DNA of 35,608 bases, from contig JAQOWU010000007.1 of assembly GCA_030867685.1 (NCBI GenBank), positions 2,604,001 to 2,639,608 of the forward strand, written 5' to 3'. The notes below the pieces were generated by a model, which saw only the letters and a list, made by a program, of their open reading frames with translations, was not told the DNA's origin and did not search any database. This document shows positions 2,511 through 34,048 of this stretch, in pieces (positions within the stretch are counted from its first letter, which is position 1; each line of letters opens with the position of its first letter). A program made the translations under genes and the position numbers. This DNA comes from Wickerhamiella versatilis. Lineage: Eukaryota.

Positions 2511-2539
2511 TGGTTGGACAATGCAAGATAGCCCACTAC
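2511..2539 (+). repeat. 41-nt-unit dispersed motif, partial copy
   Basis: TGGTTGGACAATGCAAGATAGCCCACTAC. Confidence 0.9.
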
Positions 2540-3430: not shown

Positions 3431-6400
3431 TTACAGCAGTACTAGCATTGCAGCGATACCGATCACAAGAGTACCAAACGGCTTGGACTTTTCTGCAGCA
3501 TTAGCAAGGGCTGGAGCAGAAGAAATAACAGCAGGTGCGGCAATAGGAGCCAATCCACTAGGTGACTCAGATGCTACGGAGGAAGCACTTGAAGCAGCAA
3601 CAGGAGCAGACTCACTTGGTGATTCAGATACCGCTGGGGAAGCACTTGAAGCAGCAACAGGAGCAGACTCACTTGGTGATTCAGATACCGCTGGGGAAGC
3701 ACTTGAAGCAGCGACAGGAGCAGACTCACTTGGTGACTCAAATGCCGCTGGGGAAGCACTTGAAGCAGCGACAGGAGCAGACTCACTTGGTGATTCAGAT
3801 GCCGCTGGGGAAGCACTTGAAGCAGCGACAGGAGCAGACTCACTAGCTGGTCCAGATGTACTTGGCCCAATGACCAAAGTTGTAGGCTCGGTCACAGTAT
3901 AGGTAGAAGAGCCATGGGTGAAAGTCGTTGGTGAAGGACAGTAAGTTGTGAAGTGAGTGACTTCTGCCGTCGCTGTGGTAATACCAGTGGCCACAGGACT
4001 TTCCTCACTCTGGGTATTGGTGCAATCGCATTCCTCTATAGATATTGTCGTCGCTTCAGTCACAGTGTAAGTGGAAGAACCATGAGTGAAAGTTGTTGGT
4101 GATGGACAGTACGTGGTGAAGTAGGTTGTGCCCGCTGTCGTGGTGGCATCAAAGCCTGCACCGCTTGACTCAGTAGCAGCACCTGCAGCTGCAGTACCCG
4201 ACTCGGTACCAGTAGCACCTGAGCCAGCAGCACCGGTACCAGTAGCAACGGATTCAGAACCAGATCCACCGGCACCAGTTCCAGTGGCACCTGAGCCAGC
4301 AGCACCGGTACCAGTAGCACCAGATTCGGAACCAGAGCTACCGGCGCCAGTTCCAGTAGCACCTGAGCCAGCAGCACCGGTATCAGTAGCACCAGATTCA
4401 GAACTAGAGCCACCGGCACCAGTTCTAGTAGCACCGGCAGAACCAGAGCCACCGGCGCCAGTTCCAGTAGCACCTGAGCCAGCAGCACCGGTACCAGTAG
4501 CGCCAGATTCAGAACTAGAGCCACTGGCACCAGTTCCAGTAGCACCGGCAGAACCAGAGCCACCGGCGCCAGTTCCAGTAGCACCGGTAGAAACAACATC
4601 AGACGAGCTCGTAGTCTGTGAAGTCTGCGGACTCACTGTGTGATTCCGACTAGTAGCCGGCTGCGATGTAGTGATGCTTGATACTTCCGGGGTAGCAGAG
4701 CCAGACTTTGTACTGGATCCAGACAATGATCCATGTCTGTTAGAGGACCCAGCAGGCAAAGTTACACTCGACAATGTTGGTTTCAAGCTCGATTTTTCAC
4801 CACTTGAACGCGTAGTGACTGTCTCAGGCAGAGTTACACTCGACAATGTTGGTTTGAAGCCCGACTTTCCACCACTCGAACGTGCAGTAATATAGGACGA
4901 CTGAGTTGTTCTAGTTGTCGGTACAGGTGATCCACTAGACCCATTGATGCCGCCACCTGACGTTACTTGAGCAGATGATGAAGTGGCTGTCGAAACAACG
5001 CTGGTCTGGGAAATTGACGTGGAACAGTGCGCAGGTGAAACAGTAATATCAAATCCAGAAACATGGTTCAACTTAGCAAGTGGCAATATCACATTAATGG
5101 CATCAATGATCTTGTTCACGTCATTCAGGTAGTCCGAGGATGCGTTGACCTGCGCCCACAATACACAACATGGGTGACGTGACAGTCCACCACCGACCTG
5201 AACAATGATGCTCGAGATTCCTTTGTTAATAAGATTCAGACCCGGAACAATAGAGTTAATCAAACCAACAAGTCCAGAACTGTTAAGAGCCTGTAGAATC
5301 TGGTGATCTATCTCCAATAGTTGAGAAATAGCATTCAAGACCTTGGCCTGGCTGTTATAGCTGATACAGTCAATATTACCAGATATGCCGGCAAGATCAT
5401 TGAAGACGGACTGGAGTGAATTAATATGTTCGGGAAGATCGAATATGTTAATGCCTGACTCGAAAGCGTTAATTACGGCATCCACTGCCTTTTCCAGGCT
5501 ATCAATGATGTCGCCAACGATTCCTTCGTTATCGCACTTGCAGCTCGAAGTGGCACTGGGGATAGCCACACTTGAAGTAGCAGGGCTTGTGATTACAATA
5601 GTAGAAGATGGCAAGCTTGAAATGGTGCTTGGAATATTGCTGATGCTAATCGATGAACCAGCCGTGGTGGGGGTTCCGCTAGCACTCACACCTGTTGTAC
5701 TACTCGCCGCTGCGAGCGAAAGAGTTGACGAAGAACAGTGCGCAGGTGAAACAGTAATATCAAATCCAGAAACATGGTTCAACTTAGCAAGTGGCAGTAT
5801 CACATTAATAGCGTCAATGATATTGTTCACGTCATTCAAGTAGTCCGAGGATGCGTTGACCTGCGCCCACAGAACACAACATGGGTGACGTGACAGTCCA
5901 CCACCGACCTGAATAATGATGCTCGAGATTCCTTTGTTAATAAGATTCAGACCCGGAACAATAGAGTTAATCACCTGAACAATTCCAAAACTGTTAAGTC
6001 CCTCGAGCAACTGATGATCTATCTCCAATAGTTGAGAAATAGCATTCAAGACCTTGGCCTGGCTGTTATAGCTGATGCAGTCAATATTACCAGATATGCC
6101 GGCAAGATCATTGAAGACGGACTGGAGTGAATTAATATGTTCGGGAAGATCGAATATGTTAATGCCTGACTTGAAGGCGTTAATTACGGCATCCACTGCC
6201 TTTTCCAGGCTATCAATGATGTCGCCAACGATTCCTTCGTTATCGCACTTGCAGCTCGAAGTGGCACTGGGGATAGCCACATTCGAAGTAGCTGGACTTG
6301 TGATTACAATAGTAGAAGAAGCCAAACTTGATACGGTGGTAGGGATAGTGGTGGCTGCAGATGATGAACACTCCCCAGATGAAACAGTAACATCAAATCC

Positions 6401-7033
6401 AGAAACGTGTTTCAACTTAGCAAGTGGCAATATCACATTAATAGCATCAATGATCTTGTTCACATCATTCAGGTAGTCCGAGGAAGCGTTCACCTCTCCC
6501 CACAATACACAACATGGGTGACGTGACAGTCCACCACCGACCTGAACAATGATGCTCGAGATTCCTTTGTTAATAAGATTCAGGCCCGGAACAATAGGCG
6601 TAATCAAACCAACAAGTCCAGAACTGTTAAGAGCCTGTAGAATCTGGTGATCTATCTCCAATAGTTGAGAAATAGCATTCAAGACCTTGGCCTGGCTGTT
6701 ATAGCTGATACAGTCAATATTACCAGATATGCCGGCAAGGTCATTGAAGACGGACTGGAGTGAATTAATATGTTCGGGAAGATCGAATATGTTAATGCCT
6801 GACTCGAAAGCGTTAGTTGCGGCATCCACCGCCTTCTCCAAGCTATCAATGATGTTACCAAGGATTCCTTCGTTATCGCACTGGCAGCTCGAAGTAGTTG
6901 CTGGCAATTTCACATCATGAGTTGCCGGACTAGTGAATGGAACAGTCGTCGATGCCAACGAGTATGAGCTCGTTGATGCATCTTGACATGCTACTAACTG
7001 AAGTACACTTTGTAGTATCACAAAGGCCCTCAT
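3431..7033 (-). CDS. Large GPI-anchored cell-wall/adhesin-like protein with three tandem Cys-containing helical domains
   Basis: ATG at 7033 (the ORF track starts at an upstream GTG). Signal peptide [16 protein letters not shown], three ~170-aa repeats, Gly/Ala/Thr/Ser repeats, two Sed1/Ccw12-type [14 protein letters not shown] motifs, and C-terminal NAA...hydrophobic tail typical of a GPI signal. Confidence 0.88.
3561..3845 (-). repeat. Coding minisatellite, 5 x 57 bp ([19 protein letters not shown])
   Basis: Units start at 3561, 3618, 3675, 3732 and 3789. Confidence 0.92.
4196..4590 (-). repeat. Coding tandem repeats encoding GATGTGA(A/G)GSG(S) units
   Basis: Repeated ccagtagcacc/gagcc blocks of variable length, roughly 30-39 bp. 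Confidence 0.85.
5025..6895 (-). repeat. Three near-identical ~520-550 bp domain-coding repeats (approx. 5025-5580, 5735-6290, 6380-6895)
   Basis: Long stretches are identical at the nucleotide level between copies. Confidence 0.92.
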
Positions 7034-9347
7034 GTGCACTATACGAATAGTCGCCGCGTAGCTGGGAAAGCGTCCTAATTATACGTAGCCTCGGTATGCG
7101 CGGATTCGATCGGCTCCATCATAACTATGCGCTCCGTAAATTTGTAATCCAAATATGCTATGCATATGCGGTATGAACTTTTTTTGGCAGTAGTAAATAG
7201 TGTGTGCAAGCCCAATCATGGCCTCAATTTAGTTATTTTTCCTGTGTTTACATTGTTTAGAGCTTTAACATGTAGTTTCTAGCACGTTGGCCAGTGCTCT
7301 ACCGGCATGCAAATACCATTAATAAGTGTTGAAGGGAGCACCCCATCAGGGTAATTTGGTCCTGTTTAGACGGGAACGCTATTTATCGTGTCGAAAATCA
7401 AAAGATTGATGGATATTCCACATTATTTTTCTGCTACCACCAAGAAGATCATAGAAAGGATGTCTTAAGGCGAGTCCTGAGGCAACAGACGGATGGGCAC
7501 AGCTCCGACGCCGGCCCCAACCCATGCAGACTCAAACACTTTTTTCAGGGAGCTAGTTATGAAGTGACCTATTTTCATCTAGCTATACTAGAAATAATAG
7601 GGTGTGACCGGGGTGGCGGGAGATGGGATACCGCTTTTGGTATGATTCTCGTCCATTTTCGGTGATAACGGAGACCCAATCGACAGTTTAGTGAGAATTG
7701 ACTAAGCCACCTGTCAGCGACGCAAATCGTGCCGCTCCATACATCACGGTATTAGGGTTGTGAGCTCGGTGAGGATGCGCCGCACAGCCGACTTAATAAT
7801 TCACTGGTGCTTTCGAAATCAGACTTTCGAATTTATTTTATATGGTTCTGGTATGGTGGTGTCTAAGTAGACTGCTCTTCTCCGGCTAGTAACTATTTTT
7901 TTGCGGGCGCGCTACCGTTTCATGTAAGTGTTGCCCGCGATTGAAAGGGATCGGGTAAGTCGTGATGTAGGATCCGGCTTAAAAATCCTTAATGCAGCTT
8001 ACACCCCTTTATTGCTAGTAAAGACCCAAACTCCAAAGTAGAAGTAAATGACATACGTCCTAAATGGCCAGTTGTGGACTAGACCTTTGTTTCTAAATCA
8101 CAAGTGTGCTTCCTCTCAAGTACGCTGCTTCTCCATACTAAGCGCAATAGGTTGTTGTAACGAAAATCGGAAGGAGCTGCGTAACTCCGATAGAACCCTT
8201 CTAGTGTTAGCAAAATGTTAGGCTTTGGAATAGAACAGGCGCAATACGTTCTAAGTGTGCCAGAAAATTTTTTTCTGGCGTGACCGGACCCCCTATTTGC
8301 CACATAAATGGTGAATTATCCTCCATTTTCTGTATCCACAGCCACAACAACAACAACCGCCGCTACGTTTTCACACACCTTATTTATAAGTAACTCTTCT
8401 ATATTATAGCAGTCAACCCGAAGTTTTTGGAAATTTTTTAAGCCTCACAATATTTCTAGTGGACTATCTGACAGCTTTCAGACTTTCAGGGGAGGTCTAA
8501 GCATATGCGCTTATTAATGGATGGTGCTTCAACGGCATGACTACTCTCGTATAGATGCAATACACAAGACATGAGACATGGCATGCTTAGTGATCCATGC
8601 AGAAAGTTCCAGATTGAGGTTTAGGCGATGCTGGGATTAAAATTAGTGAAACTTGTGTTGGTAGCATTGACAGACCACGTAACGATATCATATATTGTGC
8701 TGCAACTCCAGCACCGGCGTTTCTAGTGTTTCATAGTGGTCTGCGCGAACTTCAGAAGTTGTAAGCACCTCTTCTGGAAGATCTGCGGGCATTTCACAAT
8801 CCTCACGTGTGCGCCTAATGTGTCTATTAGCGATTAAAGATCATAGAATGAAGGGTGTTTGAGGATTCCTAGCTTACTATCGGTGGACAACAAGTTCATG
8901 TAGTTTATGATGCACATTGGCTATGTGGAAAATATGACGACAAATCAGGAGGGCCCACTTATTCCAATACACCCCAAGCCTCGAAAGAGCAGTTGACCTC
9001 GTAGAAACATCTGGTTCCTCGATTGCCACTCGGTATTTATCCCGCACAATCCCCTAGTAAAGAGTTGAACAATGTTCCTTGGGATACAGTATAGTTGTTG
9101 CTTGACTACCTAAGGGCCGCTGGACGATGTCTTGTTAAGCACGCTACGTCACAGATAGACAGAGGGGTGGCTACCCTTCGTTTTCAACTATTTACGGTTT
9201 CTCGCTAGAGTGAGAATTAAGGGGTGGATGCATTGAAGTGATCAAAAACGCATCTCCTATTTTTAGGCATATAATCATGCAGGGCAGAACCCATTCCATA
9301 AATATATGTGTAAGCAGCCGATTGAATTACTAATTGGGCGGGGTTGG

Positions 9348-9384
9348 TAGCCCACTACCTGAGACTGGTTGGACAATGCAAGAT
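9348..9384 (+). repeat. Dispersed motif, 36-nt-period variant (lacks TCACT)
   Basis: TAGCCCACTACCTGAGACTGGTTGGACAATGCAAGAT. Confidence 0.92.
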
Positions 9385-9693: not shown

Positions 9694-10467
9694 TCACTGA
9701 GCAGTCAGGCCACCGTCAATCACAAGCTCACTTCCAGTTACAAACTTTGATTCATCGCTAGAAAGATACAACACACCATATGAAACATCCTCAGGCTCGC
9801 CAAAGTGGCCAAGCGGGTACTGCGATTCCAAGAATTTTTGCATAGCTGCAGCGCCAGCACGCTTTGGGTCATAGGCGTTATGTGTCATTGGCGTCCACAC
9901 AATGCCAGGAAACACAGTATTCACTCGAATCCCTTTTTTGGCTAAGTGTATCGCAGCTGACCTCGAAAATGCCCGGATTGCACCCTTGCTCGCAGAATAG
10001 GCCGCTAAGTGGGGATCACCTATCAGTCCCGCCACTGATGCGACGTTGACTATTGAGGCCGTCTCGGACTTACGCTGCTTCATAAGCTCAATAGAATATT
10101 GGGTTCCAAGAAACACACTGTCTAAATCTGTTCTCAGGCATTTATGCCAATCCTGTAGCTTCAGGTGTTCAGCAGTACCGAGGACCGCAATTCCGGCGTT
10201 GTTCACTGTAACATCTAGTTTACCACATTTGTTGGCTATGGTGTCCATGGAAGTTTTCCAATCATCTTGTTTCGCAGCATCAAGCTTTAAAAAATTTGCA
10301 TCCCCACCCGACTTTGTGATTTCTCTAGCAGTTCGGGGGCCGGCTTCCTCGTCAATATCAGCTACAAATACAGACGCACCTTCCCGCGCGAAAGTACGGG
10401 CAATGGATTCCCCGAGCCCTTTTGCGCTTCCAGTTATAAGCGTAACTTTTCCCGCAAGCCGAGACAT
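9694..10467 (-). CDS. Classical short-chain dehydrogenase/reductase (3beta/17beta-HSD, cyclopentanol dehydrogenase or R-ADH-like); bacterial-type sequence
   Basis: TGSAKGLG cofactor motif, NNAG, catalytic YSASK, C-terminal FVTGSELVIDGGLTAQ. Confidence 0.92.
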   Translation of the reverse strand: MSRLAGKVTLITGSAKGLGESIARTFAREGASVFVADIDEEAGPRTAREITKSGGDANFLKLDAAKQDDWKTSMDTIANKCGKLDVTVNNAGIAVLGTAEHLKLQDWHKCLRTDLDSVFLGTQYSIELMKQRKSETASIVNVASVAGLIGDPHLAAYSASKGAIRAFSRSAAIHLAKKGIRVNTVFPGIVWTPMTHNAYDPKRAGAAAMQKFLESQYPLGHFGEPEDVSYGVLYLSSDESKFVTGSELVIDGGLTAQ

Positions 10468-10540: not shown

Positions 10541-10569
10541 TACCCGAGACTGGTTGGACAATGCAAGAT
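10541..10569 (+). repeat. Dispersed motif, partial copy
   Basis: TACCCGAGACTGGTTGGACAATGCAAGAT. Confidence 0.9.
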
Positions 10570-10673: not shown

Positions 10674-10698
10674 ACCAGTCTCAGGTAGTGAAGTGGGC
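10674..10698 (-). repeat. Dispersed motif, inverted partial copy
   Basis: accagtctcaggtagtgaagtgggc, the reverse complement of GCCCACTTCACTACCTGAGACTGGT. Confidence 0.9.
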
Positions 10699-11350: not shown

Positions 11351-11379
11351 TACTTGAGACTGGTTGGACAATGCAAAAT
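11351..11379 (+). repeat. Dispersed motif, partial copy
   Basis: TACTTGAGACTGGTTGGACAATGCAAAAT. Confidence 0.88.
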
Positions 11380-11453: not shown

Positions 11454-11478
11454 CTGGTTGAATAATGCAAGATAGCCC
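11454..11478 (+). repeat. Dispersed motif, degenerate partial copy
   Basis: CTGGTTGAATAATGCAAGATAGCCC. Confidence 0.85.
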
Positions 11479-11513: not shown

Positions 11514-12014
11514 ATGAACAGGAAGTTTATCATTCGCATCATCCTCAGTGTACTGGTTATTATCACTGATAGCATTGCTCTTGGGATCATGGCTCATCTG
11601 CGTAGCCAATCCTGGGGTAGCTCTTTAATAGGAAGTGTCGTTTTGGCTGCAAATTTCTTGGTACTGGCTTTCACTCTATGGAAGATTCTTACCGATATAT
11701 TCCTACCACCTAACAAAATCCACATGCTCATATTCACCTGGTTATACGGTTTTGTCGATGGTATGATGCTGGCGGCTGCAGCCATCGTCCTAGGTCACCT
11801 GGACTCAGGACGCCTTTCTGAAAGAGCACTAGATGCTTTTTTATGGATAACAGGCGTTTTAATACTCTTTTTGTTGATTTATGAAGTTTCAATTATTACA
11901 AATAATAGTAAAAAAGATTACGAAAATCCTTTTGATGACAGTGACGAAACTTATCGTGAACCCAATCGTGCTGCAGGGGAAGAACTTTTGCATGAGCTTA
12001 GATCTCCAATCTAG
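11514..12014 (+). CDS. Four-TM membrane protein, MARVEL-like
   Basis: Four hydrophobic segments and an acidic tail. R...D.IALG and DG....AAA patterns are shared with the 21101-21688 protein. Confidence 0.65.
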   Translation: MNRKFIIRIILSVLVIITDSIALGIMAHLRSQSWGSSLIGSVVLAANFLVLAFTLWKILTDIFLPPNKIHMLIFTWLYGFVDGMMLAAAAIVLGHLDSGRLSERALDAFLWITGVLILFLLIYEVSIITNNSKKDYENPFDDSDETYREPNRAAGEELLHELRSPI

Positions 12015-13077: not shown

Positions 13078-13154
13078 ATTCAGGTAACCACAGTCTATCT
13101 TTAAGATTTTCTCAGCATATGATTTCGACTTTAAGAGAATTGAAATAGTTTGAC

Positions 13155-13176
13155 TGGACAATGCAAGATAGCCCAC
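13155..13176 (+). repeat. Dispersed motif, partial copy
   Basis: TGGACAATGCAAGATAGCCCAC. Confidence 0.88.
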
Positions 13177-13333
13177 AGTAAATTTATAAGAAGTATATTG
13201 CCAAGACAAAACTAATCGAAGTTCGTCGGTGTTTTTCTGGAGTCCATTCAAGTTGATCACTATGCTCATGATGAGACCAGGACTCTGAATTTGGACTTCC
13301 TAAAAAGAGAAGTGAGTACATAGCAAATACTTC
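13177..13333 (-). pseudogene. Decayed copy of the 3' end and 3' flank of the 22258-23177 membrane gene
   Basis: 13155-13333 aligns by eye with 22196-22379 (e.g. gtttttctggagtccattcaa, tctgaatttggac, tagcaaatacttc), with indels. Confidence 0.8.
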
Positions 13334-13869: not shown

Positions 13870-13905
13870 CTATCTTGCATTTTCCAGCCATTCTCAGTAG
13901 TAAAG
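13870..13905 (-). repeat. Dispersed motif, degenerate inverted copy
   Basis: ctatcttgcattttccagccattctcagtagtaaag. Confidence 0.8.
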
Positions 13906-14211
13906 CAAGCTACTGCATGTGATCTACATCTAACACTCGCCAAGACTTTGAAGATCGATTGATTGTAGACGCAGAAAAATTGAATCTTAGATGGGCGTAT
14001 GCTTGAACTTCATATTGTCGGATGCTAGGAGATGTCATAGCTGATCAGGTAAGTGTTGGGATAACATAGAAAACATTCGACCTTGCGAGCTACGAATTAT
14101 AGTCTTGATAACTCATCATACAGCCTTTCATCTGATTCTGTACCGAAATTAACCCCTTAGGTTATTTAAACCCTAAAAAATATGATTGCGGTGGAAGCCT
14201 TGCCATACAAG

Positions 14212-14219
14212 TATAAATA
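14212..14219 (+). promoter_or_regulatory. Probable TATA box
   Basis: TATAAATA 43 nt upstream of the ATG at 14263. Confidence 0.4.
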
Positions 14220-14262
14220 GGGCCTCTCAGGAAGGAAACATCCTATCAACCAGGAAAGTACC

Positions 14263-14616
14263 ATGCTGACCACACTAGTATCGATGTTTGCGTTGGCGCT
14301 AGCCGTCGCCGAACCCATCAGCAACCAGGAACCAAAGTATGTAAATGGCACCGAAGTAGTTTCGCTTCTTGCAATTTACAACTCGCAGGACATTGGGAAG
14401 CCGGTCGAGGGGGTAAATCCTATTTCATACGTCTACGTTCCAGCTGAGTCCGACCCAACCCAATTTGAAGATCTTTTGAGTGGGAGCGGTGTAAGCCTCG
14501 TTGAAGAATACGATCGTCCAGTGGGAAAAAAAGTATGTGTCTCCCATCATCTGGTGGAAGATAACAGTACTCGTATCGTAGAGGAATTGAAGTGGAAAAT
14601 TTGTGTCAAGTTATGA
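14263..14616 (+). CDS. Small secreted hypothetical protein
   Basis: Clear signal peptide MLTTLVSMFALALAVA, N-glycosylation sequons NGT and NST, upstream TATA box, ACCATG start context. Confidence 0.6.
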   Translation: MLTTLVSMFALALAVAEPISNQEPKYVNGTEVVSLLAIYNSQDIGKPVEGVNPISYVYVPAESDPTQFEDLLSGSGVSLVEEYDRPVGKKVCVSHHLVEDNSTRIVEELKWKICVKL

Positions 14617-14708
14617 TTGAGGGTACGCACTTAGGACTTTGTCTTAGCTCTTCTTAACCAGATGTTTCAGTCACTCTTTAGAATATAGCCTCTTCGCTTA
14701 TTTCCACC

Positions 14709-14763
14709 AGATAGCCCACTTCACTAACTGAGACTGGCTGGACAATGCAAGATAGCCCACTAC
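14709..14763 (+). repeat. Dispersed motif, longest copy (41-nt unit plus 12-nt terminal direct repeat)
   Basis: AGATAGCCCACT-TCACTAACTGAGACTGGCTGGACAATGCA-AGATAGCCCACT-AC. Confidence 0.95.
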
Positions 14764-14910
14764 GCAACTAAACTAATGTGTATAGGATTTCGTTCTAGCT
14801 AATTCCCCAGAGCGATGTTTGCACTTCACACAATCGCCAGCACGTTCAATGCGCTTGTTCTGGTAGTTAGGGGTGCAATGAACACTCTAGTTGATCCATG
14901 CGGGCACAGA

Positions 14911-15331
14911 TTACTTTTCAGAGCAAGGATATAATGGTTCCCGGAAATCGTATTGAACCCTCAATTCCTGGGCCTTTGTCCAGACAATATGACCCTCAGG
15001 TGCAGGAGGACCGAGTAGTGCTTTCCAGGCGGCCATGTTGGACGCGCTTTCAGGGTCATTGGATGCAGCATCCATCAGCGACTTAAAGTAAACCTCCCGG
15101 TTATCATATTCATCCATGAACATCCATATTTCGTGTTCTGGATCAGCAGGATCTTCCCTGAAGAAGACCCTCGTACGGGTATAGTAATAAAGGTCTGGAC
15201 GGGAATGCTGGAATTTAAGAACTTTTGAAAACAATGCCATAGCTTTTTTCATGATCTCTCTTGCGAATGACGAACTGCTGAGAGTCTATCTGGCGCTCTT
15301 TTGTTGGGGTTGCTGTTATAGGCTTGGCCAT
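14911..15331 (-). pseudogene. Small soluble protein, possibly a dimeric alpha/beta-barrel (ABM/NIPSNAP-like) fold, with an apparent frameshift in an A6 run
   Basis: ATG at 15331 reads MAKPITATPTKERQIDSQQFVIRKRDHEK. Removing one base from the T6 at 15244-15249 joins this to the 113-aa ORF (AMALFSKVL...EIWMFMDEYDNREVY). The fold guess is inference. Confidence 0.5.
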
Positions 15332-15374
15332 GTTTGACTGTGGTTACGTAAGATGTCCGGCCTTATTACGTGGC

Positions 15375-15402
15375 CTGCTTGGACAGTGCAAGATAGCCAA
15401 CT
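15375..15402 (+). repeat. Dispersed motif, degenerate partial copy
   Basis: CTGCTTGGACAGTGCAAGATAGCCAACT. Confidence 0.82.
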
Positions 15403-15935
15403 CAATGCTACTTGGTATCGCGATAATGACACCGCATGTATTTTGTTGTCTCCAAATTGAAAGATTAGGCTATCCATGCTGATATTGATCGTAAAAGGGG
15501 ATCTGTATCTCTGTGAAATGGCTAAAACGATTTCAGTAGACAGTGAAGTGCCGATGTAGTGAATTGTATAAGACTATATTTTAGCACCATTAAATCGAGT
15601 ATACTATGTATTGGTTTTTTTTTCTTTTCTGTATGTTCTGTGAACTTAGAATTAATTCTCCTTCCTCTGGATAAGAATCATAGCATTACGTTGCCAAATT
15701 ACAAGGTATAAATGTACAACATACATTGACTTGACAATGGAAGATAGCTTACCGCCAGTCTCTAAATTGCTTGACTAGGGAATAATACTTACCCATCTTG
15801 TTGACTTGATATTATACATCTTAATTTATCATGCAGGAGAACCTAGTTTGTGTGCCTGCATCACATAATCAGAGAAAAACTGGTTACATGAGAACATCAG
15901 GTTAATATTTATTTGATTTTACAAGACTGGTTATA

Positions 15936-15959
15936 CCAACCAGTCTCAGGTAGTGAAGT
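15936..15959 (-). repeat. Dispersed motif, inverted partial copy forming a hairpin with 15924-15932
   Basis: ccaaccagtctcaggtagtgaagt. Confidence 0.9.
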
Positions 15960-16060
15960 CACGAGGTTGCACTATTGACCCAGGTATCTGATCATCTATC
16001 TCAGGATCTGGCACAAACTTATGCATCCGCATGCGTCTTACAGCTTCAAATTCCCATTGA

Positions 16061-16074
16061 CCCACTACCTGAGA
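16061..16074 (+). repeat. Dispersed motif, short fragment (36-nt variant junction)
   Basis: CCCACTACCTGAGA. Confidence 0.65.
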
Positions 16075-16606
16075 AACGTTAACCCAGTAAATTGTCGGTC
16101 AAAACCAAATGGAAATATATGTTGAAAGGGTTATATTGGTGCATTTTAACTTCATTAGACACCCTAAAGTATTAACGTTTCTCGACTGTATATTATATTA
16201 TTATAGCTCTTAATACGACCTCATCAAGCTCGGCTGTTGCTGGCTACGCATCCGGGCAGATCGACAATGTGAGACAAGTTGATTAGGGCTGCCCACTTTT
16301 TTGTTTCGCGTAAGTGTTAATGCGGGGGTCATACACCTTGCTCTGCACTTGTCTGACAGGAAGCATTCAAAATTCTGTGGCTTCCTAAATTTTCACTAAT
16401 AGAGTGGAAATGCAACTAGAGCTTAAATGTAAAGCAGTCATTACTAAGTAGGGATTTGTCGCGAGTGGGATCCATACGCTCTCAAAAGGGTCATATTATA
16501 AATTTCGGGTGGGGGTATGATACATCCCGAGAATACAGGCTTGGCATGTAGATCAGAGTACCAATACCATAAATAAGGATCTCAAAGACCCATTTTGTTA
16601 ACAATT

Positions 16607-18005: not shown

Positions 18006-18043
18006 TTTACTACTCGAGACTGGTTGGACAATGCAAGATAGCC
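18006..18043 (+). repeat. Dispersed motif, partial copy
   Basis: TTTACTACTCGAGACTGGTTGGACAATGCAAGATAGCC. Confidence 0.92.
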
Positions 18044-18661: not shown

Positions 18662-18713
18662 TGGTTGGACAATGCAAGATAGCCGCAATTAGGATATTTC
18701 TGCATTGTCCAGC
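18662..18713 (+). repeat. Dispersed motif partial copy (18662-18684) plus inverted fragment (18701-18713)
   Basis: TGGTTGGACAATGCAAGATAGCC ... tgcattgtccagc. Confidence 0.88.
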
Positions 18714-18746
18714 TAGATTTCAAGCCTTAAGTTAGAAATCAGACGA

Positions 18747-20291
18747 TCAGAATTTCATCTCAGATAGAAACCTTTGTGTAGCATGTCTTTCGAGATATAA
18801 AGAAACATCAAACCCACCATCATCCGCACCGGTATCCATAATAGTGACTATGCCGTCGCATTTGTCCATGACGGAATGTACATAGCGTGGTTTTCTCCCT
18901 GTACCATCAAAGTCCAAACTATACGGATCTAGTCTCAACCAGGAAGTAACTAGTAAATGCTGATTCCCTAGAAATGCTTGCCATAGACGCTGCGGTGATA
19001 ACTCATACGCAGCATCATGGAGCATCGATCCCATTTTCTCGGGTGTTATGAAGGAAATCGCATTTCGAATATTCGTAGAGAGTGCACCTATACTTCCCAT
19101 GCACACTTCACTACCTTTTGCTTTCACGTAAGTTATAAAAAGGGGTGATCCAATAAAGTTGGGTGGTAACTTTGGTTCTAACCTCGCTCTTGCACCAATA
19201 GTTATGTCAAGATATACATCCCCTGAGCATTCAACATTCCTACGAGCACAATTGACACCCTGCCAAATAAAGGCCAAAAGAGCATCTAAGCGTGAAATAT
19301 CCTGGCGGGCTCCTTTCTCGCTACGAGCATTACTTCTGATATGATCAATTTTGGAGCCTGTGAAGTGCAATAGCGTATACGAAACAGGCTTCGAAAAATC
19401 CCACGTATTCCAGGGAGGTACAGTAGACTCTGAAAGCCCCCCACATTTCCCAATAATGTATGGTGGTGGCTTCGATGCTTCTATTCTACTAGCAACTTTT
19501 GATGGATATCCAGGAACATTAGTGTGCCACCAATCAAAACGATGTAGGGGAATACTACGTGCAGCAGCAACCAAGGTGGGATCAGATTGGTTCGCATCAA
19601 CGTTTCCAGATGCATAGGAATCCAATAATTGTGGCTCAAATATGGGTCGACCGAGGGGTGATGGTCTGAAGACTCCAAGCCTTGCCCTGCAAATCTGAGC
19701 CCATAGTTGCACAAAAACCATCAGTGTCTGTGCATCTGCAAGAACATGTGAAATTTTGACACTAATTGCATATCCATTATCAGAGAAAAGATTAATTTGA
19801 ATCGACACTCCCGGAAGACCGTGGTAAGAATGAAGATCGTGCAACGCCAATAATGTAGGTGATATCAAAGAGTTCTGAGGAAATTCATTCCCATCCCAAA
19901 TGAATCGCGTAGAAGCTCTCTCTTCTGAACTGGGAGCGAGAACACTCGCAGCGATATTTCCGTGATGGACCACCCCACATTCGACACCTGGATCATCATT
20001 GGTGCCATATTTGACCATAGGACGTCCCCATCGTTCAGTGTGATTTCCATTATGGTGGAATGGAGACCACATCAATTGTCCAGCGAAATGTGGAAACGAA
20101 TTTAAAGCTTCAGACAAGCTACTCTGAAGATGCTGGACAAAGTCATGAGCTTGTATATTACTGGGTATGGAATCATAAATCCAGATTCCGCCAGCTGGAG
20201 AAAAACGTGCCACAGTGGCGTCGAGAATAGAAAGTGATTTAAATTTACCTTCATGCCTTGATTCGGGGAATATACGAGTTCTCTGCGGCAT
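18747..20291 (-). CDS. CoA-dependent acyltransferase, transferase/BAHD (Tri101-like) family
   Basis: LSILDATV N-terminal motif, catalytic HVLAD (HxxxD), C-terminal LDFDG (DFGWG-like). First ATG at 20291. Confidence 0.88.
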   Translation of the reverse strand: MPQRTRIFPESRHEGKFKSLSILDATVARFSPAGGIWIYDSIPSNIQAHDFVQHLQSSLSEALNSFPHFAGQLMWSPFHHNGNHTERWGRPMVKYGTNDDPGVECGVVHHGNIAASVLAPSSEERASTRFIWDGNEFPQNSLISPTLLALHDLHSYHGLPGVSIQINLFSDNGYAISVKISHVLADAQTLMVFVQLWAQICRARLGVFRPSPLGRPIFEPQLLDSYASGNVDANQSDPTLVAAARSIPLHRFDWWHTNVPGYPSKVASRIEASKPPPYIIGKCGGLSESTVPPWNTWDFSKPVSYTLLHFTGSKIDHIRSNARSEKGARQDISRLDALLAFIWQGVNCARRNVECSGDVYLDITIGARARLEPKLPPNFIGSPLFITYVKAKGSEVCMGSIGALSTNIRNAISFITPEKMGSMLHDAAYELSPQRLWQAFLGNQHLLVTSWLRLDPYSLDFDGTGRKPRYVHSVMDKCDGIVTIMDTGADDGGFDVSLYLERHATQRFLSEMKF

Positions 20292-20680
20292 GTTACAGGT
20301 AGTTGGAGCACACGCTTTTATTCTCCAAAAGAAAATCAAAGCCCAGAGAGATAATTTGTGGATGTGTCTTACCCTCGAATCTTTGCCGACCCGTGAAAAG
20401 AGAAAGCTATTAAGTTGGATCTTCTATTATTAATCAAGGGAAATATATCGGCATAGGGTAATGCAGTCATCCTAAGTACTTTGCAGGCGAGGGTAGTAGA
20501 ATAAAGGTCATTTTGATCATTTAGCAAAGAATGGCTAAATCATCAGACCAGGAGAGTATGGCCGGGGGTTTCTTGAGTTCTTGCAATTCGATGTTTAAAA
20601 CACTCATTCTGAGTTAATGCTGATACGATCCTCTCTTTTACACACTAGTTATTGCGGTATTACTAACTTATTCATCTGTT

Positions 20681-20697
20681 ATGCAAGATAGCCCACT
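20681..20697 (+). repeat. Dispersed motif, short copy
   Basis: ATGCAAGATAGCCCACT. Confidence 0.82.
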
Positions 20698-21035: not shown

Positions 21036-21051
21036 TGGGCTATCTTGCATT
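21036..21051 (-). repeat. Dispersed motif, short inverted copy
   Basis: tgggctatcttgcatt. Confidence 0.8.
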
Positions 21052-22040: not shown

Positions 22041-22191
22041 GAATGTATACTGTCCAACCAGATTAATTTTGCTACATGGCTTTATGCTGTGGTGCTCTTC
22101 ACTTCTCTAATAGGATGTTCCTGTTATATAATGCCATCTGCAAGGTATCCTGCATCTGTACTCTCCTCAGCATTTACTAAGTGACATCGCT

Positions 22192-22218
22192 TGGTTGGAC
22201 AATGCAAGATATCCCACT
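22192..22218 (+). repeat. Dispersed motif, partial copy
   Basis: TGGTTGGACAATGCAAGATATCCCACT. Confidence 0.9.
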
Positions 22219-22257
22219 GTAAATGTATAAGAACTATATTGCCGAGACAAAGCTAAA

Positions 22258-23177
22258 TTAAGTTTGTGAGAGTTTTTCTGGAGTCCATTCAACTTGATCA
22301 CTACGCTCACGAGACCAAGATTCTGAATTTGGACACCCTAAAAAAAAGGAGGGTATTGAGAGTATGTAGCAAATACTTCCTGCTATTCCACCAAGAAGCA
22401 TCCTGGTATCGCCATTCTGTACGAATGACCACAAATTAACCACGGCCAGAATCAAACATGCACCTACAAAGACACTTAGCCATAGCGGAAACCACCATAT
22501 ACGGTCGTCAACCGGTGCAACTGCCAGAGAGAATGAGAGTATATGCATGGCACCAATGGTCTTAATGACCTAAACAGCTCAGTGGGTACCAAAGAAAAGG
22601 GTACCATGACTTTAATTGAGAAATATATTGCAGGCAAGGCCAAAAAATAAGGGATACATGAAGGAAGTTCGTTCATAAGTGCATATAACAAACATAAAAA
22701 TATAACTGAGGAAATGAGAAATCCAAGCATGCTGATGGTATAAAAGAAAACATTACAGCCAGAACTGTTTGCCCAAATTAAGCTGTAATCTAATTGACCG
22801 TAGATTCTGTCCTCACAATTTTTGGCGTCCATGATATATGTGACAAACAAAACAAATGAATTACAGAACCATATGACTAGAGCCCGCTGAGCAGCAAAGT
22901 AATCTTTAGGTTTGCAAAGGCAGTTAATAACAAAAGGGAAAAATGGGAGTAAGAATCCGATTAATCGCCATTCCATGGTTCCACGAGCAACCTGTGGGAT
23001 AGCAGCAAGCAAGACGCCAGCAAATACTAAAAACATAGATTGACATGCAATAACTCCATAATTAAGATAACTTGAATTAGGAGGAGATGAATTCTTATCG
23101 TCTTCTCTTTTCTTTGTGCCTTCTCTTACTTCATCGACAGTGAATTCTGATACGCGAAAACAATCGCCATCAGACAT
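22258..23177 (-). pseudogene. Multi-pass membrane protein, paralog of 26912-27709, interrupted by one frameshift near 22542
   Basis: ATG at 23177. RALVIWFCNSFVLF matches RAAAIWLCNSFVLL of the paralog, and similarity continues from ORF 22476-23240 (LFRSLRPLVP) into ORF 22258-22548 (SFSLA...LWSFVQ). Confidence 0.7.
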
Positions 23178-23199: not shown

Positions 23200-23224
23200 G
23201 ACTGGTTGAACAATGCGAAATAGC
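23200..23224 (+). repeat. Dispersed motif, degenerate copy
   Basis: GACTGGTTGAACAATGCGAAATAGC. Confidence 0.78.
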
Positions 23225-23544: not shown

Positions 23545-23642
23545 GGTTGGACAATGCAAGATAGCCACTGATGTATCATGCTGAAGAAGTTAACCAATTT
23601 CGGACAATGCAAGATAGCCCACTAAATTGAACGATGCAAGAT
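23545..23642 (+). repeat. Cluster of three motif fragments (23545-23569, 23602-23624, 23627-23642)
   Basis: GGTTGGACAATGCAAGATAGCCACT; GGACAATGCAAGATAGCCCACTA; TTGAACGATGCAAGAT. Confidence 0.9.
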
Positions 23643-23806: not shown

Positions 23807-26308
23807 CTATCTTAATAAGTATCTACCTGTTATGCTGTCTTCATTATCGGCGACCTGCGAGGGGCTTCCAGTAGCAACAATTTTCCCCCCAGCAGCGCCC
23901 CCCCCTGGACCAAGATCCACGACATAATCTGAATTTCGAATAATATCCAAGTCATGTTCTATAACAATAACAGTAGCCCCACTTGCGGTCAACTTCTGAA
24001 AGACGCGCAGTAACACCTGGATGTCTAATGGATGCAATCCGATTGAGGGTTCATCGAAAACAAACACCGAACCATGCTGATCCTTACGTAAATCTGCAGA
24101 AAGCTTAAGTCGCTGAGCTTCTCCTCCAGACAACGTAGTAGTCGCTTCACCAAGAGTGAGATACCCTAGGCCCAGCTCAACCAGCGAACGCAACTGGGAA
24201 TGCACCTTTTTCATCCCTGTTGTTTTAGCCAACACTTCCTCTATGGTCATTTCTAGCAGCTGTGGAAGCGAGTGCGTTTCGCGTTTACCCCTTTTGCCAT
24301 GTTCCTCCATTGAATAAATATACAGCCCTGCGTCAGGTTCATAGCGTGTACCATGACAGGTTGGACAAGTGATATCCACATCGGCAAGAAACTGTACATC
24401 CAATGATATCTGTCCTGTGCCATCACAAGCATGACAGCGAAGTGATCCAGTATTGTAGGAAAAGTCACCTGGTTTTAACTTGCGTCTTTTTGCCGTAGTT
24501 GTATTGGCATAAGCTCGCCGCAGCTCATCAAGCACACCACAGTAGGTTGCCACGGTTGACCTTGAATTTGCGCCAATAGGCGAAGCATCAATCACATACG
24601 TATTTGTCAAATCCTCGACGTCCAATATTTCAACAGTACTTGGTAACTTTCCACTGGCATGATGCGCTTTAAGCGCTGGTACAAGGCACTCAAGTATCAG
24701 AGTAGTCTTTCCAGACCCCGAAACACCTGTTACACCTATTAGCCGCTGTTTGGGAAAATCCACGGTTAGGGCGGAAACGGTATGAATAGGCTGTGTCTTT
24801 AGATGTATCGCTCCATTAATAAAAATATCTGAGGGTCGGAGACGTGGACGCACATGAACACTCTGGCTCCCCTCTATGAACCCTCCTATAAGAGAGCATG
24901 GGTTTCGAGCCAATTGTGACAAAGGAGAAGAATTAATCACCTCTCCTCCTTTTGATCCAGATCCTGGTCCAATTTCGATCAACCAGTCAGCGTTGCGGAG
25001 AACCTGTACGTCGTGGTCGACTGCGACAACAGTATTTCCATCACCTATAAGTGTATGAATGACACTCAATAGTCCCTCAATATTTACAGGGTGTAGGCCG
25101 ATAGATGGCTCATCCAACACATAGAGAACCCCGGTAGTTCGATTCCGAACTGCTCGTGAGAGCTGGACACGCTGTCTCTCACCTGTAGAGAGTGTAGAAG
25201 AAGGGCGATCAAGACTGAGATATCCCAAACCAAGCTCAATTAGGCGAGCAGAAATTTCTCTGATATTGTTTACGATACTGGTTCCCATTGCTTGCATCTC
25301 CACAGGAAGGTCCTCGGGAACTTCAGTGACCCATTTTGTGACATCAGCCAAAGTTTTATTAGCTATCTGCGCTAAATTGGCACCTCTTACAAGTGACGAT
25401 GATGCCTTCGGACTGAGTCTTGTACCGTGACAATCAGGACAAACCTGAATGCTGAGGTACTTATCAATCCTCTGTAACCCCTTTTCGGTTGAGGCATTTT
25501 TAAGCGCTTCCTCAACTGCGGTATACGCGCTTCTGAATGTCACATTTAAGTCAAAAAGCCTACCGGTCTTTGAAGGAATTAGCACCCTTATCTTTTCAGT
25601 GGGTCCTCGGAAAACAGTGTTTTTCTCCTTCTCCGAAAGGTCACAAAATGGAATCGTTGTACGGACACCCATTTCTCCAACTGCCCTAGCGTTGATAGAT
25701 AGGCCAAAAAGTGACCAAGGACCTACTGCACCTTCTTCAATTGTGAGATTTTCATCCGGTACTAACTTCGTCTCGTCAACTTCCCTGACCACACCTGTTC
25801 CGGAGCACCTTTTGCACGCACCGTCACTGTTGAAAGCAAATGATTCAGCAGATGGTGGGACAAACTCCTCAGCACATACCGGGCAAACTAGGTTTTTTTC
25901 AAGTGCCACGTTGATAGTAGGATCTAAATAGTGCCCATTCGGGCATTTATGGCTACCAACTCGGGAAAATAAGAGACGCAGCCCATTTAGAACCTCCGTT
26001 GAAGTTCCAAAAGTGCTTCTTATTCCAGGTATAGGAGGTCTTTGTCTTAGGGCAAGCGCCGCTGGGATATGCTCAATGGCATCAACGGACGGACGAGCAG
26101 TAGTTCTGATTCTTCGACGGGTGTAAGTAGACAGTCCCTCTAAATACCGGCGGGATCCCTCGGCATACAGAATCCCAAGGGCAAGTGAAGACTTTCCAGA
26201 CCCGGACACACCAGCTATGCCAACAAATTTTCCCAATGGAATTGATATATCGATATTCTTCAGGTTGTGAACTCTTCCTCCTCGTATCACTATATAGTCG
26301 GGCTCCAT
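23807..26308 (-). CDS. uvrA: Short UvrA-family (class II, UvrA2/DrrC-like) ABC ATPase of bacterial type
   Basis: Two Walker A motifs (GVSGSGKSS, GVSGSGKTT), signatures LSTGERQR and LSGGEAQRLKL, Walker B LDEP/FDEP, CxxC zinc fingers, HNLKNID. About 833 aa from the ATG at 26308, shorter than canonical UvrA. Confidence 0.93.
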   Translation of the reverse strand: MEPDYIVIRGGRVHNLKNIDISIPLGKFVGIAGVSGSGKSSLALGILYAEGSRRYLEGLSTYTRRRIRTTARPSVDAIEHIPAALALRQRPPIPGIRSTFGTSTEVLNGLRLLFSRVGSHKCPNGHYLDPTINVALEKNLVCPVCAEEFVPPSAESFAFNSDGACKRCSGTGVVREVDETKLVPDENLTIEEGAVGPWSLFGLSINARAVGEMGVRTTIPFCDLSEKEKNTVFRGPTEKIRVLIPSKTGRLFDLNVTFRSAYTAVEEALKNASTEKGLQRIDKYLSIQVCPDCHGTRLSPKASSSLVRGANLAQIANKTLADVTKWVTEVPEDLPVEMQAMGTSIVNNIREISARLIELGLGYLSLDRPSSTLSTGERQRVQLSRAVRNRTTGVLYVLDEPSIGLHPVNIEGLLSVIHTLIGDGNTVVAVDHDVQVLRNADWLIEIGPGSGSKGGEVINSSPLSQLARNPCSLIGGFIEGSQSVHVRPRLRPSDIFINGAIHLKTQPIHTVSALTVDFPKQRLIGVTGVSGSGKTTLILECLVPALKAHHASGKLPSTVEILDVEDLTNTYVIDASPIGANSRSTVATYCGVLDELRRAYANTTTAKRRKLKPGDFSYNTGSLRCHACDGTGQISLDVQFLADVDITCPTCHGTRYEPDAGLYIYSMEEHGKRGKRETHSLPQLLEMTIEEVLAKTTGMKKVHSQLRSLVELGLGYLTLGEATTTLSGGEAQRLKLSADLRKDQHGSVFVFDEPSIGLHPLDIQVLLRVFQKLTASGATVIVIEHDLDIIRNSDYVVDLGPGGGAAGGKIVATGSPSQVADNEDSITGRYLLR

Positions 26309-26393
26309 TTTAAGAACATGGATCGAAGGGGTCGAGTGCAATGCTTAGAATTCTGGTCATCGGACGATTACGATATATTACTACGAGCTTAGT

Positions 26394-26419
26394 TGAGACT
26401 GGTTGGAGATGCAAGATAG
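26394..26419 (+). repeat. Dispersed motif, partial copy
   Basis: TGAGACTGGTTGGAGATGCAAGATAG. Confidence 0.88.
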
Positions 26420-26595: not shown

Positions 26596-26620
26596 TGAGA
26601 CTGGTTGGACAATGCAAGAT
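26596..26620 (+). repeat. Dispersed motif, partial copy
   Basis: TGAGACTGGTTGGACAATGCAAGAT. Confidence 0.9.
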
Positions 26621-28110: not shown

Positions 28111-28146
28111 CTGCCTGAGACTGGTTGGACAATGCAAGATAGCCCA
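28111..28146 (+). repeat. Dispersed motif, partial copy
   Basis: CTGCCTGAGACTGGTTGGACAATGCAAGATAGCCCA. Confidence 0.92.
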
Positions 28147-28367: not shown

Positions 28368-30196
28368 TCAAACATTTTGCTCTAACTTGTCGTAGTACCA
28401 AATGGTAAGGATAGTATAAATAAACATTGAGGAGACATGATATACGATAGAGCGAGCGGATGCATTCCAGAAAACTCTACTAGGCTGTACTCGAATGAAC
28501 CTATATTCTGGAGAGGAGGGTATTTTATTCTCAGTGAAATCAATGGAAACCGAAATCATAAGCCACAGAATATTATAGGCACAAAGTATCTTAGTGGCAC
28601 TAGTGATTGACATCTTTCGAAGCCGAATCCCTTTTCTCACGCATGATGTTACCAATACAACACTAAAATATTCTGTAGCAATCAAGACTAGTAGCATCAA
28701 GAATATGTAGATGTTATTAGAACGGACGGATGAAAAGAGAAAGAGTTGACCAAAAAGTTGGGATAAAAATAAAAAATGATTTCTCCAACGAGAAAGTTCG
28801 AACTTGGTGTGCGGAGAGAGACCGATGAGAAGCGTATATATTAGCGCAGTATGTGCCAATATATTGATCGCAAACGCTGATGCACCATCAGATAGAGTCG
28901 AGCCTGATCTCGTCGCCGCTGCATAGCTTGAGAGGGTAAGTACAAATATCGGTATGACAATCAAACTCCATGAAATTTTTTTTTCACAGCATTCAAGATG
29001 TATATGAAATAGAACAACAACCAGTCTCCTATTATTACGACAAGAATAGATGCGTCTCCAATCATTAACTGGACCGAAACTACTCTACCCACCTTCTCAG
29101 ATATCTCCGAAATATGCTGAAGATCTCCCTGATCACTATAGAAGACATATTCCTTATGAAGATGCTGAGCACAGCTTTCAAGATAGCATACATACATGTG
29201 CACGGACAGGTACGCGAGCATATATATCAGAGTAGATATATACAAAATCCATAATAAACTTCCCTTTCTGGCTGAGGATCTTGGTATACAGGTTCCAGAA
29301 ATGCCCTTTTCACTTCTTTTTGAATCATCCTCGTCATCGCCTTGTGGCCTAGCAGCCCACGCGCTCAGAAGATTGAAAATATAGATACATGAGACGCATA
29401 ACATGACAGATACAACTGAAGCAACATTTTCTTTGGGCCATAGATTCATAATGGGGAATTTTTCAACCACATCTGAAAGAGGAGCATATTCTTCAAAATC
29501 ATCATCGTCTCCAAAAATATATTGATCAGCTCTTGTTGTTAATAAACCAATTAGAGACCCCAAAAGACAGGATATTGACAATCCTATATTATCAATTTTG
29601 TTTATTGTGCCTCCTAAATATGTATTCTTCAGTCCGGCAATCAATAATGCGGTAAGAGACAGAAGTTCCAGAGGCAGTAGTTCCAAGAAGTGCCAGTACT
29701 CAAAACGATTGGACACCTGCAGTAAAAAAGCAGTAAGACTCGTTAATAAAGTTAAATTCAAAAAAAAGTACCGCCACCTGGACAAACATACCTTGGCTTG
29801 AGAAGAAAGCATACTCAATGTAATAAATGTAAAAGCAGTGTAGGTTAGAATTTCAGATATAGCTCTGAAAAAACTAAAGTAATAACACATTTTAGTGAGT
29901 GCCATAATATTTCCCATAAGCAACAGGAATGTGGTAGAACATGCAACTAGGCACGACGGGACTTTTGACCCTATTAATACAAGAACTCCTGACACTGTTA
30001 AAAAAGAGTATAGTGCAGGGAAATAAAAAGGGCAGTACTCTAGTCGGAACAGGGTCGAAGGAGCGTAAGCATTTACGATAGTTTCAACAGCCAACCCGAA
30101 ATATATTATATACAGAAGACCCTTGTTAGCCCAAAAGACTTTAGTGTTGTCATCAAGGGACTTGAGTTTTGAGCTAATTGTGCTGATACGCTGCAT
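28368..30196 (-). pseudogene. Large multi-pass membrane protein with two internally homologous halves, split by a frameshift in an A9 run; possibly a highly diverged MFS
   Basis: ORFs 28961-30196 and 28368-28964 overlap by 4 nt, and the second lacks an ATG start. One extra base in the T9 at 28976-28984 fuses them. EILTYTAF...KVCLSRWRYFFL repeats as NILAHTAL...KFELSRWRNHFL. Confidence 0.6.
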
Positions 30197-30271: not shown

Positions 30272-30317
30272 CACTTCACTACCTGAGACTGGTTGGACAA
30301 TGCAAGATAGCCCACTT
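30272..30317 (+). repeat. Dispersed motif, more than one full unit
   Basis: CACTTCACTACCTGAGACTGGTTGGACAATGCAAGATAGCCCACTT. Confidence 0.95.
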
Positions 30318-32066: not shown

Positions 32067-32095
32067 TGGTTGGACAATGCAAGAAGGCCCAGTTC
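32067..32095 (+). repeat. Dispersed motif, degenerate partial copy
   Basis: TGGTTGGACAATGCAAGAAGGCCCAGTTC. Confidence 0.85.
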
Positions 32096-32507: not shown

Positions 32508-32558
32508 TAGCCCACTTCACTACCTGAGACTGGTTGGACAATGCAAGATAGCCCACTA
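32508..32558 (+). repeat. Dispersed motif, near full-length perfect copy
   Basis: TAGCCCACTTCACTACCTGAGACTGGTTGGACAATGCAAGATAGCCCACTA. Confidence 0.95.
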
Positions 32559-34007: not shown

Positions 34008-34048
34008 ACCTGAAACTGGTTGGACAATGCAAGATAGCCCACCTGAGA
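34008..34048 (+). repeat. Dispersed motif, 33-nt-period variant running into a second unit
   Basis: ACCTGAAACTGGTTGGACAATGCAAGATAGCCC-ACCTGAGA. Confidence 0.92.

Follow-up and report, generated by a model that had tools for sequence, protein, structure and literature searches.

How did so many short, near-identical and similarly oriented pieces of one 41-nt sequence come to lie between the genes of a yeast chromosome? The DNA analysed (the window, a stretch of 35,608 nucleotides whose first letter is position 1) had been read in a preliminary description as carrying single-pass copies of a very long telomerase RNA template. We give a probability of about 0.5 to a related reading, namely that the copies are anchored, single-pass templated additions made by telomerase at internal DNA ends in a subtelomere-type region. 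The evidence lies in the form of the copies, in their setting among the genes, and in raw RNA reads and assembled contigs from outside the window.

The 41-nt unit and its copies

The 12-mer AGATAGCCCACT was found at both ends of the longest copy, at 14709-14720 and 14750-14761, with a spacing of 41 nt, in agreement with the preliminary description. At no more than one mismatch, the 12-mer was present 15 times in the window (13 on the + strand and 2 on the - strand), against 0.15 expected from 100 shuffles. The 41 nt at 32508-32548 were taken as the reference unit; the composition of its + strand is 9 G, 11 C, 9 T and 12 A, and the - strand is 56% G+T. When three units placed in tandem were aligned to the window, 34 non-overlapping matches of 10-53 nt resulted; Table 1 lists those of at least 16 nt. 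A scan for exact matches of at least 14 nt identified 24 fragments, whereas 200 shuffled windows averaged 0.01 and never held more than one. These represent 23 copies, as the copy at 14709 is broken into two exact fragments by its own two mismatches. The majority of the copies are 100% identical to the consensus, and their density in the window is about one per 1.3 kb. At the positions of the two mismatches in the 14709 copy, the consensus letters were present in nearly all other copies in the outside sequence data.

The copies span all phases of the unit and several cross the unit boundary, with wrap-around present in the three longest (53, 50 and 46 nt). The claimed ceiling of about 1.3 units was upheld, the window maximum being 53 nt, and Tandem Repeats Finder identified no tandem array of the 41-nt unit in the window. 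The outer frame is fixed, in that no copy extends beyond phase 38 leftward or beyond about phase 8-9 rightward. The core common to the copies is TGGACAATGCAAGAT; nothing beyond about 15 nt is shared by all of them as a complete site, and the truncation points are many. The 53-mer showed no fold beyond chance on either strand (z of +0.4 to +1.3) and no palindrome. The copy at 9353 goes on leftward (TAGCCCACT, 9343-9384) across a 5-nt deletion between two CACT repeats, a change of the slippage type.

Table 1. Copies of the 41-nt unit in the window, with strand, length and remarks.
Positions	Strand	Copy	Remark
2511-2537	+	27 nt, perfect	no other copy within the first 9 kb
9353-9384	+	32 nt, perfect, ending ..AAGAT	unit alignment
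10541-10569	+	29 nt, ending ..AAGAT	73 nt from start of short-chain dehydrogenase (SDR) ORF 9694-10467 (-)
10674-10698	-	25 nt, perfect, phases 2-26	end outside the cluster
11355-11376	+	22 nt	unit alignment
11454-11478	+	25 nt, 92% identical	35 nt before ORF 11514-12014 (+)
13155-13176	+	22 nt	inside 204-column duplication shared with 22179-22379
13870-13897	-	28 nt, 89% identical	unit alignment
14709-14761	+	53 nt, longest copy	unit plus 12-mer at both ends; 2 mismatches (14727 A for C, 14738 C for T)
15379-15398	+	20 nt, diverged	unit alignment
15733-15748	+	16 nt, diverged, weak match	unit alignment
15936-15959	-	24 nt, perfect, phases 6-29	unit alignment and exact scan
18016-18043	+	28 nt, perfect core	reaches left to about 17998 with mismatches
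18662-18684	+	23 nt, perfect	62 nt from stop of ORF 18747-20339 (-)
20681-20697	+	17 nt, perfect	unit alignment
21036-21051	-	16 nt, perfect	unit alignment
22192-22218	+	27 nt, 1 mismatch	paralogue of the 13155 copy
23200-23216	+	17 nt, diverged, weak match	only overlap with a listed ORF, near that ORF's GTG start
23545-23566	+	22 nt, perfect	first of pair; 35 nt to second
23602-23623	+	22 nt, perfect	second of pair; unit alignment
26394-26419	+	26 nt, with indel	52 nt from start of ORF 23807-26341 (-)
26596-26620	+	25 nt, perfect, ending ..AAGAT	unit alignment
28114-28146	+	33 nt, perfect	unit alignment
30272-30317	+	46 nt, perfect	75 nt from start of ORF 28961-30196 (-)
32067-32084	+	18 nt, perfect	unit alignment
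32508-32557	+	50 nt, identical to consensus	first 41 nt are the reference unit
34008-34042	+	35 nt, 1 mismatch	45 nt from start of ORF 32835-33962 (-)

The two ends of the copies behave differently. For 19 of the 21 + fragments, the right end lies in phases 38-40 or 0-9 (13 of the 41 phases; p = 3 × 10−8), in the forms ..AAGAT, ..GATAG, ..TAGCC, ..CCCA and ..CCCACT, which bears out the description of right ends clustered within or just past the 12-mer. One of the three - fragments ends inside the phases of this cluster. The left ends had been described as scattered. Those of the + copies are indeed spread over the unit, but they are not random, as 8 of 20 begin with one of the four TGs in the unit (p = 4 × 10−4); a T precedes six of these eight. 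The architecture that had been proposed, one unit plus a terminal direct repeat, is real: a 12-nt repeat, one anchored end and one variable end are all present.

Fragments of at least 14 nt lie on the + strand in 21 cases and on the - strand in 3 (binomial p = 3 × 10−4), or 20 and 3 when counted as copies. When the copies were displayed in register, their flanks showed chance-level similarity, and the copy edges were abrupt and undecayed. Some left ends are blurred by point mutations, as at 18016 and 34008, where the match runs further left with mismatches. No duplicated bases indicative of target-site duplication were found at the copy junctions examined, and there were no terminal inverted repeats, poly(A) or other tails at the copy edges. 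Sharp edges free of target-site duplication are among the features expected of an insert made during break repair. Those of a transposable element (a MITE, a solo LTR or a truncated LINE or SINE) were absent from the window, where neither terminal inverted or long terminal repeats, target-site duplications, tails nor a longer parent element was found.

Read-through past ..CCCACT was considered and rejected. An A follows four of the seven full-ended copies in the window; the isolate contigs showed no enrichment, 11 of them ending at 14761 and 3 at 14762. At 18662-18716, the + copy is followed by a 16-nt spacer and then by an 11-nt reverse-strand piece (TGCATTGTCCA), a small foldback-like arrangement; the 11-mer match of TGCATTGTCCA alone is near chance (E of 0.77).

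Gene context, age and direction

The ORFs of the window are intron-poor and number about one per 2 kb, and the stretch reads as budding-yeast nuclear DNA. The predicted products include an MFS/TRI12-type pump, a 1,202-aa repeat-rich protein, a short-chain dehydrogenase, a secretory lipase, a BAHD-type transferase, a UvrA-like ABC ATPase and an aquaporin. Pumps, wall-type repeat proteins, secretory lipases, short-chain dehydrogenases and aquaporins are gene kinds usual in yeast subtelomeres. The nearest named relative of the aquaporin was found in Starmerella bombicola (51% identity), and another ORF of the window was placed no finer than Ascomycota by the protein atlas. As the Starmerella bombicola relative is only 51% identical, membership of Pichia, a genus with long telomere units, is not implied. 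No Rfam match at the gathering score and no tRNA by ARAGORN was identified in the window.

Several ORFs have features of their own. The 844-aa ORF at 23807-26341 (-) contains ABC_tran and UvrA DNA-binding domains of the bacterial UvrA-like type, and is a possible horizontal acquisition into yeast. The 1,202-aa ORF at 3431-7039 (-) contains coding tandem repeats with periods of 57, 72 and 111 nt and three 300-nt repeats; its sole Pfam match is a weak one to DUF3164, and from its sequence the product looks like a cell-wall or adhesin-type protein. The ORFs at 28368-28964 and 28961-30196, both on the - strand, overlap by 4 nt and gave no Pfam family; a single gene, interrupted by an intron or a frameshift, may underlie the two.

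The copies avoid the ORFs. Among those of at least 16 nt, 26 of 27 are intergenic, even though ORFs cover 56% of the window (p = 6 × 10−9). At least one copy is present in 13 of the 14 inter-ORF gaps, and several gaps hold 2-7 copies. The orientation of the copies is independent of the direction of the genes, and all ORFs of at least 150 aa are intact. A Pfam scan of ten ORFs, six of them short ORFs in the long gaps, revealed no gene relics near the copies; its sole match was one MARVEL domain, in a listed ORF. Nine of the 26 intergenic copies (10541, 11454, 13155, 18016, 18662, 21036, 26394, 30272 and 34008) lie 35-83 nt from the start or stop of an ORF, the minimum distance being 35 nt. By a hand estimate, this share is about twice that of random placement, and it may reflect open chromatin at gene ends.

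The window contains a single non-coding segmental duplication, between 13138-13333 and 22179-22379 (204 columns, 79% identity), which includes the copies at 13155 and 22192. Within it, the copy shows 4 differences in 27 motif positions, no better than the flanks. As this divergence is like that of the flanks, the individual copies seem, on comparison of the two sequences, to drift neutrally and without site-by-site selection. The near-identity of the remaining copies points to repeated recent copying from a presumed master sequence. Flanks common to different copies were also considered as a clue to the mechanism, and this candidate was rejected; the only such pair (13155 and 22192) is a plain duplication that includes the copy.

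The density, length and perfection of the copies increase rightward, and the final 8 kb of the window contain the longest and cleanest of them (33, 46, 50 and 35 nt). In the preliminary description, the - strand was taken as the telomeric G strand and the chromosome end was placed to the left. The - strand of the unit contains 11 G and 9 C, and is thus almost symmetric. The TG-start bias fits + strand synthesis at least as well as - strand synthesis. Together with the solitary copy at the far left and the long copies at the right, the TG starts weakly favour synthesis of the + strand, with the chromosome end to the right; under + strand synthesis, the template boundary would perhaps lie at ..CCCACT. 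The direction leans slightly against a - G strand and a left-hand chromosome end.

The repeat outside the window

The stretch at 13900-16100 is also present in food-fermentation and sediment metagenomes and in isolates of one species. Positions 14669-14801 were compared with the raw reads of one RNA run, with two isolate contig sets and with one metagenome contig set. None of the listed data sets containing the stretch is recorded as RNA; the RNA run was picked by its species label, and its library looks unstranded. The two isolate contig sets come from different studies but are identical in contig sizes and depths; they are probably one data set and were counted once. The locus, including the 14709 copy, was unchanged in all three contig sets, as were the 35 letters between the paired copies at 23545 and 23602. 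No RNA reads fell on the unique flanks of 14669-14801.

The motif was present in 499 RNA reads, 498 of which continue into other sequence. A joint at which the sequence goes back by 41 nt was observed in 169 of the 499 reads, with 75 start places and up to 41 letters on either side. The head-to-tail extent in RNA is therefore at least 1.7 units, longer than any copy in the window. The preliminary description had held that its reading would fall if no tandem array of the unit existed, and these 169 reads supply a tandem form. In the three contig sets the 41-nt go-back joint was not found; contigs assembled from k-mers cannot hold such arrays, and its absence there is weak evidence against a tandem form in DNA.

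The commonest loose ends in the RNA reads were of two kinds: in 177 reads unique sequence passes into the repeat at phase 20, and in 156 reads the repeat runs to phase 21 and gives way to unique sequence. As unique sequence flanks the repeat on both sides, the head-to-tail reads may come from one internal transcribed locus and not from telomeres. These boundaries at phases 20 and 21 differ from the boundaries of the window copies at phases 38 and 8. A second single-locus transcript has a uniform flank and carries the repeat from phase 5 (130 reads, agreement of 1.0). Either of these transcripts could be a candidate telomerase RNA. At position 14716, G replaces C in 69 of 288 RNA reads and in no DNA contig; the likely source is one particular transcript, or a copy carried by the strain that gave the RNA.

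In a 10.2-Mb isolate assembly, the motif was found on 115 of 4,647 contigs, and the window alone has 15 copies of at least 25 nt; this comparison, which is rough, suggests that the motif is regionally concentrated. An estimate of copy number from depth (about 33,000 for the motif and about 29 for the flank) was discarded as invalid, the depths of overlapping short contigs having been summed. A metagenome scan with a boundary-crossing 18-mer was likewise uninformative; its 10 loci are chance hits, with no further piece of the unit and no blastn match to the window (E of 1 × 10−10). The 24-nt core had no match in the prokaryote genome collection.

Origin and meaning of the copies

The fixed frame (phase 38 to 8), the anchored end, the abrupt edges and the fresh, identical copies argue together for the copying of a linear template. 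The fragments would be internal copies of a long 41-nt repeat of telomere type that belongs to this yeast. The enzyme responsible, in all likelihood telomerase, would be a templated one that copies a linear RNA template of about 53 nt consisting of one unit plus the 12-nt terminal repeat. At a break in a non-coding stretch, a DNA 3' end would pair with the template, copying would run for less than one pass or for one pass at most, and the end would then be rejoined to the rest of the chromosome. The predicted product is a sharp-edged insert, anchored on one side at a boundary of the template or in its alignment zone (..AGATAGCCCACT) and variable on the other side. The uniform orientation would follow chromosome-arm polarity, as in the TG-oriented tracts of Saccharomyces cerevisiae subtelomeres. 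The identification of the enzyme as telomerase and of the tandem form as the telomere, the subtelomeric position of the region and the choice of the synthesised strand are what we infer from the features described above. The absence of a fold in the 53-mer beyond chance is as expected of a template. Several observations speak against this mechanism. No chromosome end was seen in the window or in the sequence sets compared with it. The unit is barely strand-asymmetric (9 G and 11 C on the + strand), unlike most telomere G strands, and a two-ended break should yield both orientations, so the bias of 21 to 3 needs an added assumption, such as arm polarity or selection.

The telomerase-template reading of the preliminary description is partly supported, by the architecture, the tandem form in RNA and the precedent of long yeast units. 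It had proposed that the healed end was ligated to another fragment, which fits poorly with the intact ORFs and with a copy in 13 of 14 gaps. Insertion at breaks that are repaired in place fits better. A related proposal, that the copies are scars of former chromosome ends, with healed short-telomere stumps to which new distal DNA was later joined so that the region grew outward piece by piece, would account for the uniform orientation (21:3) and for the sharp edges, the anchored end being the healing junction in the alignment zone; stumps of no more than 53 nt would also suit fusion of only eroded, uncapped telomeres. We nevertheless consider this history unlikely. The joining of random fragments should truncate genes, whereas the ORFs of at least 150 aa are intact, 26 of 27 copies lie off ORFs and no gene relics were seen among the ten ORFs scanned against Pfam. 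Nor does it suit the occupation of 13 of 14 gaps, several by 2-7 copies, and the end points of erosion should be uniform, whereas TG positions account for the starts of 8 of 20 + copies. Selection for a protein-binding or recombination site in each intergenic region (a promoter, insulator, silencer or recombinase target) would also explain the occupied gaps, the nine intergenic copies at 35-83 nt from an ORF boundary and the highly conserved core. It is the least probable of the explanations considered, and very improbable in itself, given the many truncation points, the abrupt edges, the orientation that ignores gene direction, the lack of a palindrome or fold, and an old duplicated pair whose motif has diverged like its flanks. 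A complete shared site, a fixed relation to genes and conservation above that of the flanks, as expected of cis-regulatory or recombinase sites, were not found.

There is another explanation, in which a non-telomeric 41-nt satellite or minisatellite, such as an internal transcribed array or an rDNA-spacer subrepeat, was spread by break capture or recombination. The sole tandem evidence is in RNA reads, whose commonest flanks are unique on both sides (177 and 156 reads), as for an internal array, and the unit has no clear G/C strand asymmetry. Captured pieces, however, should have ends of random phase and lie in both orientations. The anchored ends (19 of 21, p = 3 × 10−8) are not those of random pieces of an array, the orientation is 21 to 3, and a 53-nt ceiling with fixed outer limits needs a linear master. 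A satellite origin is therefore judged improbable. A fixed end opposite a variable one is also the pattern of truncated retro-copies, and the copies are young and near-identical. The source of such retro-copies could be the tail of a mobile element or some short RNA distinct from telomerase RNA, with truncation at a variable point by a reverse transcriptase that an element encodes; a miniature mobile element was also considered. We regard this origin as quite improbable. The copies lack a poly(A) or other tail, target-site duplications and terminal inverted repeats; none of them exceeds 53 nt, and an element body is absent from the window, where the Rfam and ARAGORN searches were also empty. 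The 12-nt wrap-around repeat is left unexplained.

Templated addition by telomerase can be set beside known systems. In de novo telomere addition, a 3' end with a few template-matching bases is extended, the distal DNA is lost and a full terminal array is formed. The tendency of the copies to begin at TG is reminiscent of the TG/GT junctions that such healing events leave; here, in contrast, synthesis ends within one pass and the chromosome continues. The telomere unit of Kluyveromyces lactis is 25 bp. In the sections of the sources available, units of 28 bp are given for both P. kudriavzevii and Tetrapisispora and a putative unit of 43 nt for P. norvegensis (PMC7857110), so that the very long yeast unit claimed in the preliminary description is plausible in the light of the P. 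kudriavzevii and P. norvegensis units. Budding-yeast telomerase templates are likewise described, in the available parts of the literature, as a single unit together with a short sequence directly repeated at the two ends. The present repeat resembles the long-unit yeast telomeres in having a complex unit of tens of bases and an implied master with terminal direct repeats; it differs in its length of 41 nt plus a 12-nt repeat, with an implied template of 53 nt, and in its slight G/C asymmetry. Homology to the 28-nt unit of P. kudriavzevii was no better than chance, as 242 and 387 out of 500 shuffles reached as high a score, and it was of no use for assigning the strand. The telomere unit is not printed in the portion of the Starmerella reference-genome paper examined; supplementary table 1 of PMC7857110, on yeast telomere units, may include the unit of this species.

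In mammals (primates, rodents and horse), telomeric repeats are reported in the accessible text of PMC7215372 to have been inserted during double-strand-break repair. The present copies are like those inserts, as there described, in being telomere-type sequence at internal sites with sharp edges, and unlike them in that each stays below 1.3 units, the unit itself being very long, with a phase-anchored end, dense spacing and uniform orientation. The S. cerevisiae subtelomeres are enriched in TG-oriented telomere-like tracts, among them SiRTAs and interstitial TG1-3 tracts, on which a new telomere can form when a break has removed the distal DNA; SiRTAs are for the most part degenerate TG-rich sequences of the X and Y' elements, according to the part of PMC10055226 available. 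The copies resemble these in being candidate telomere-like tracts in a single orientation, with what may be a subtelomeric concentration, and would be putative telomere seeds; unlike SiRTAs, they are exact pieces of one long unit between ordinary genes. In the literature searched, which covers few subscription journals, the motif was found in no paper in either orientation, and no description was found of dense sub-unit telomere pieces between yeast subtelomeric genes. Long yeast units, interstitial telomeric sequence and de novo addition are known already; dense, oriented, sub-unit fragments would be new.

We tentatively propose, with less confidence than attaches to the mechanism itself, that this is a yeast with a template of about 53 nt for a 41-nt unit, among the longest known, whose telomerase acts routinely at internal subtelomeric ends and for less than one pass. 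If the repeat were instead a non-telomeric satellite, a templated mechanism would still be required to explain its anchored, oriented, sub-unit fragments, and we know of none currently described for yeasts. If the telomerase reading is true, the boundaries of a long telomerase template and its preferred start and stop points could be read from the genome without biochemistry. The genome would carry a dense, oriented record of telomerase starts and stops, and the marks would double as telomere seeds. To our knowledge, yeast telomerase at internal breaks is known mainly from selected laboratory healing events; here, telomerase would rival end joining at internal breaks and would mark nearly every subtelomeric intergenic region. 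The species would then offer a natural system for asking whether sub-unit pieces seed telomeres or shape subtelomeric chromatin.
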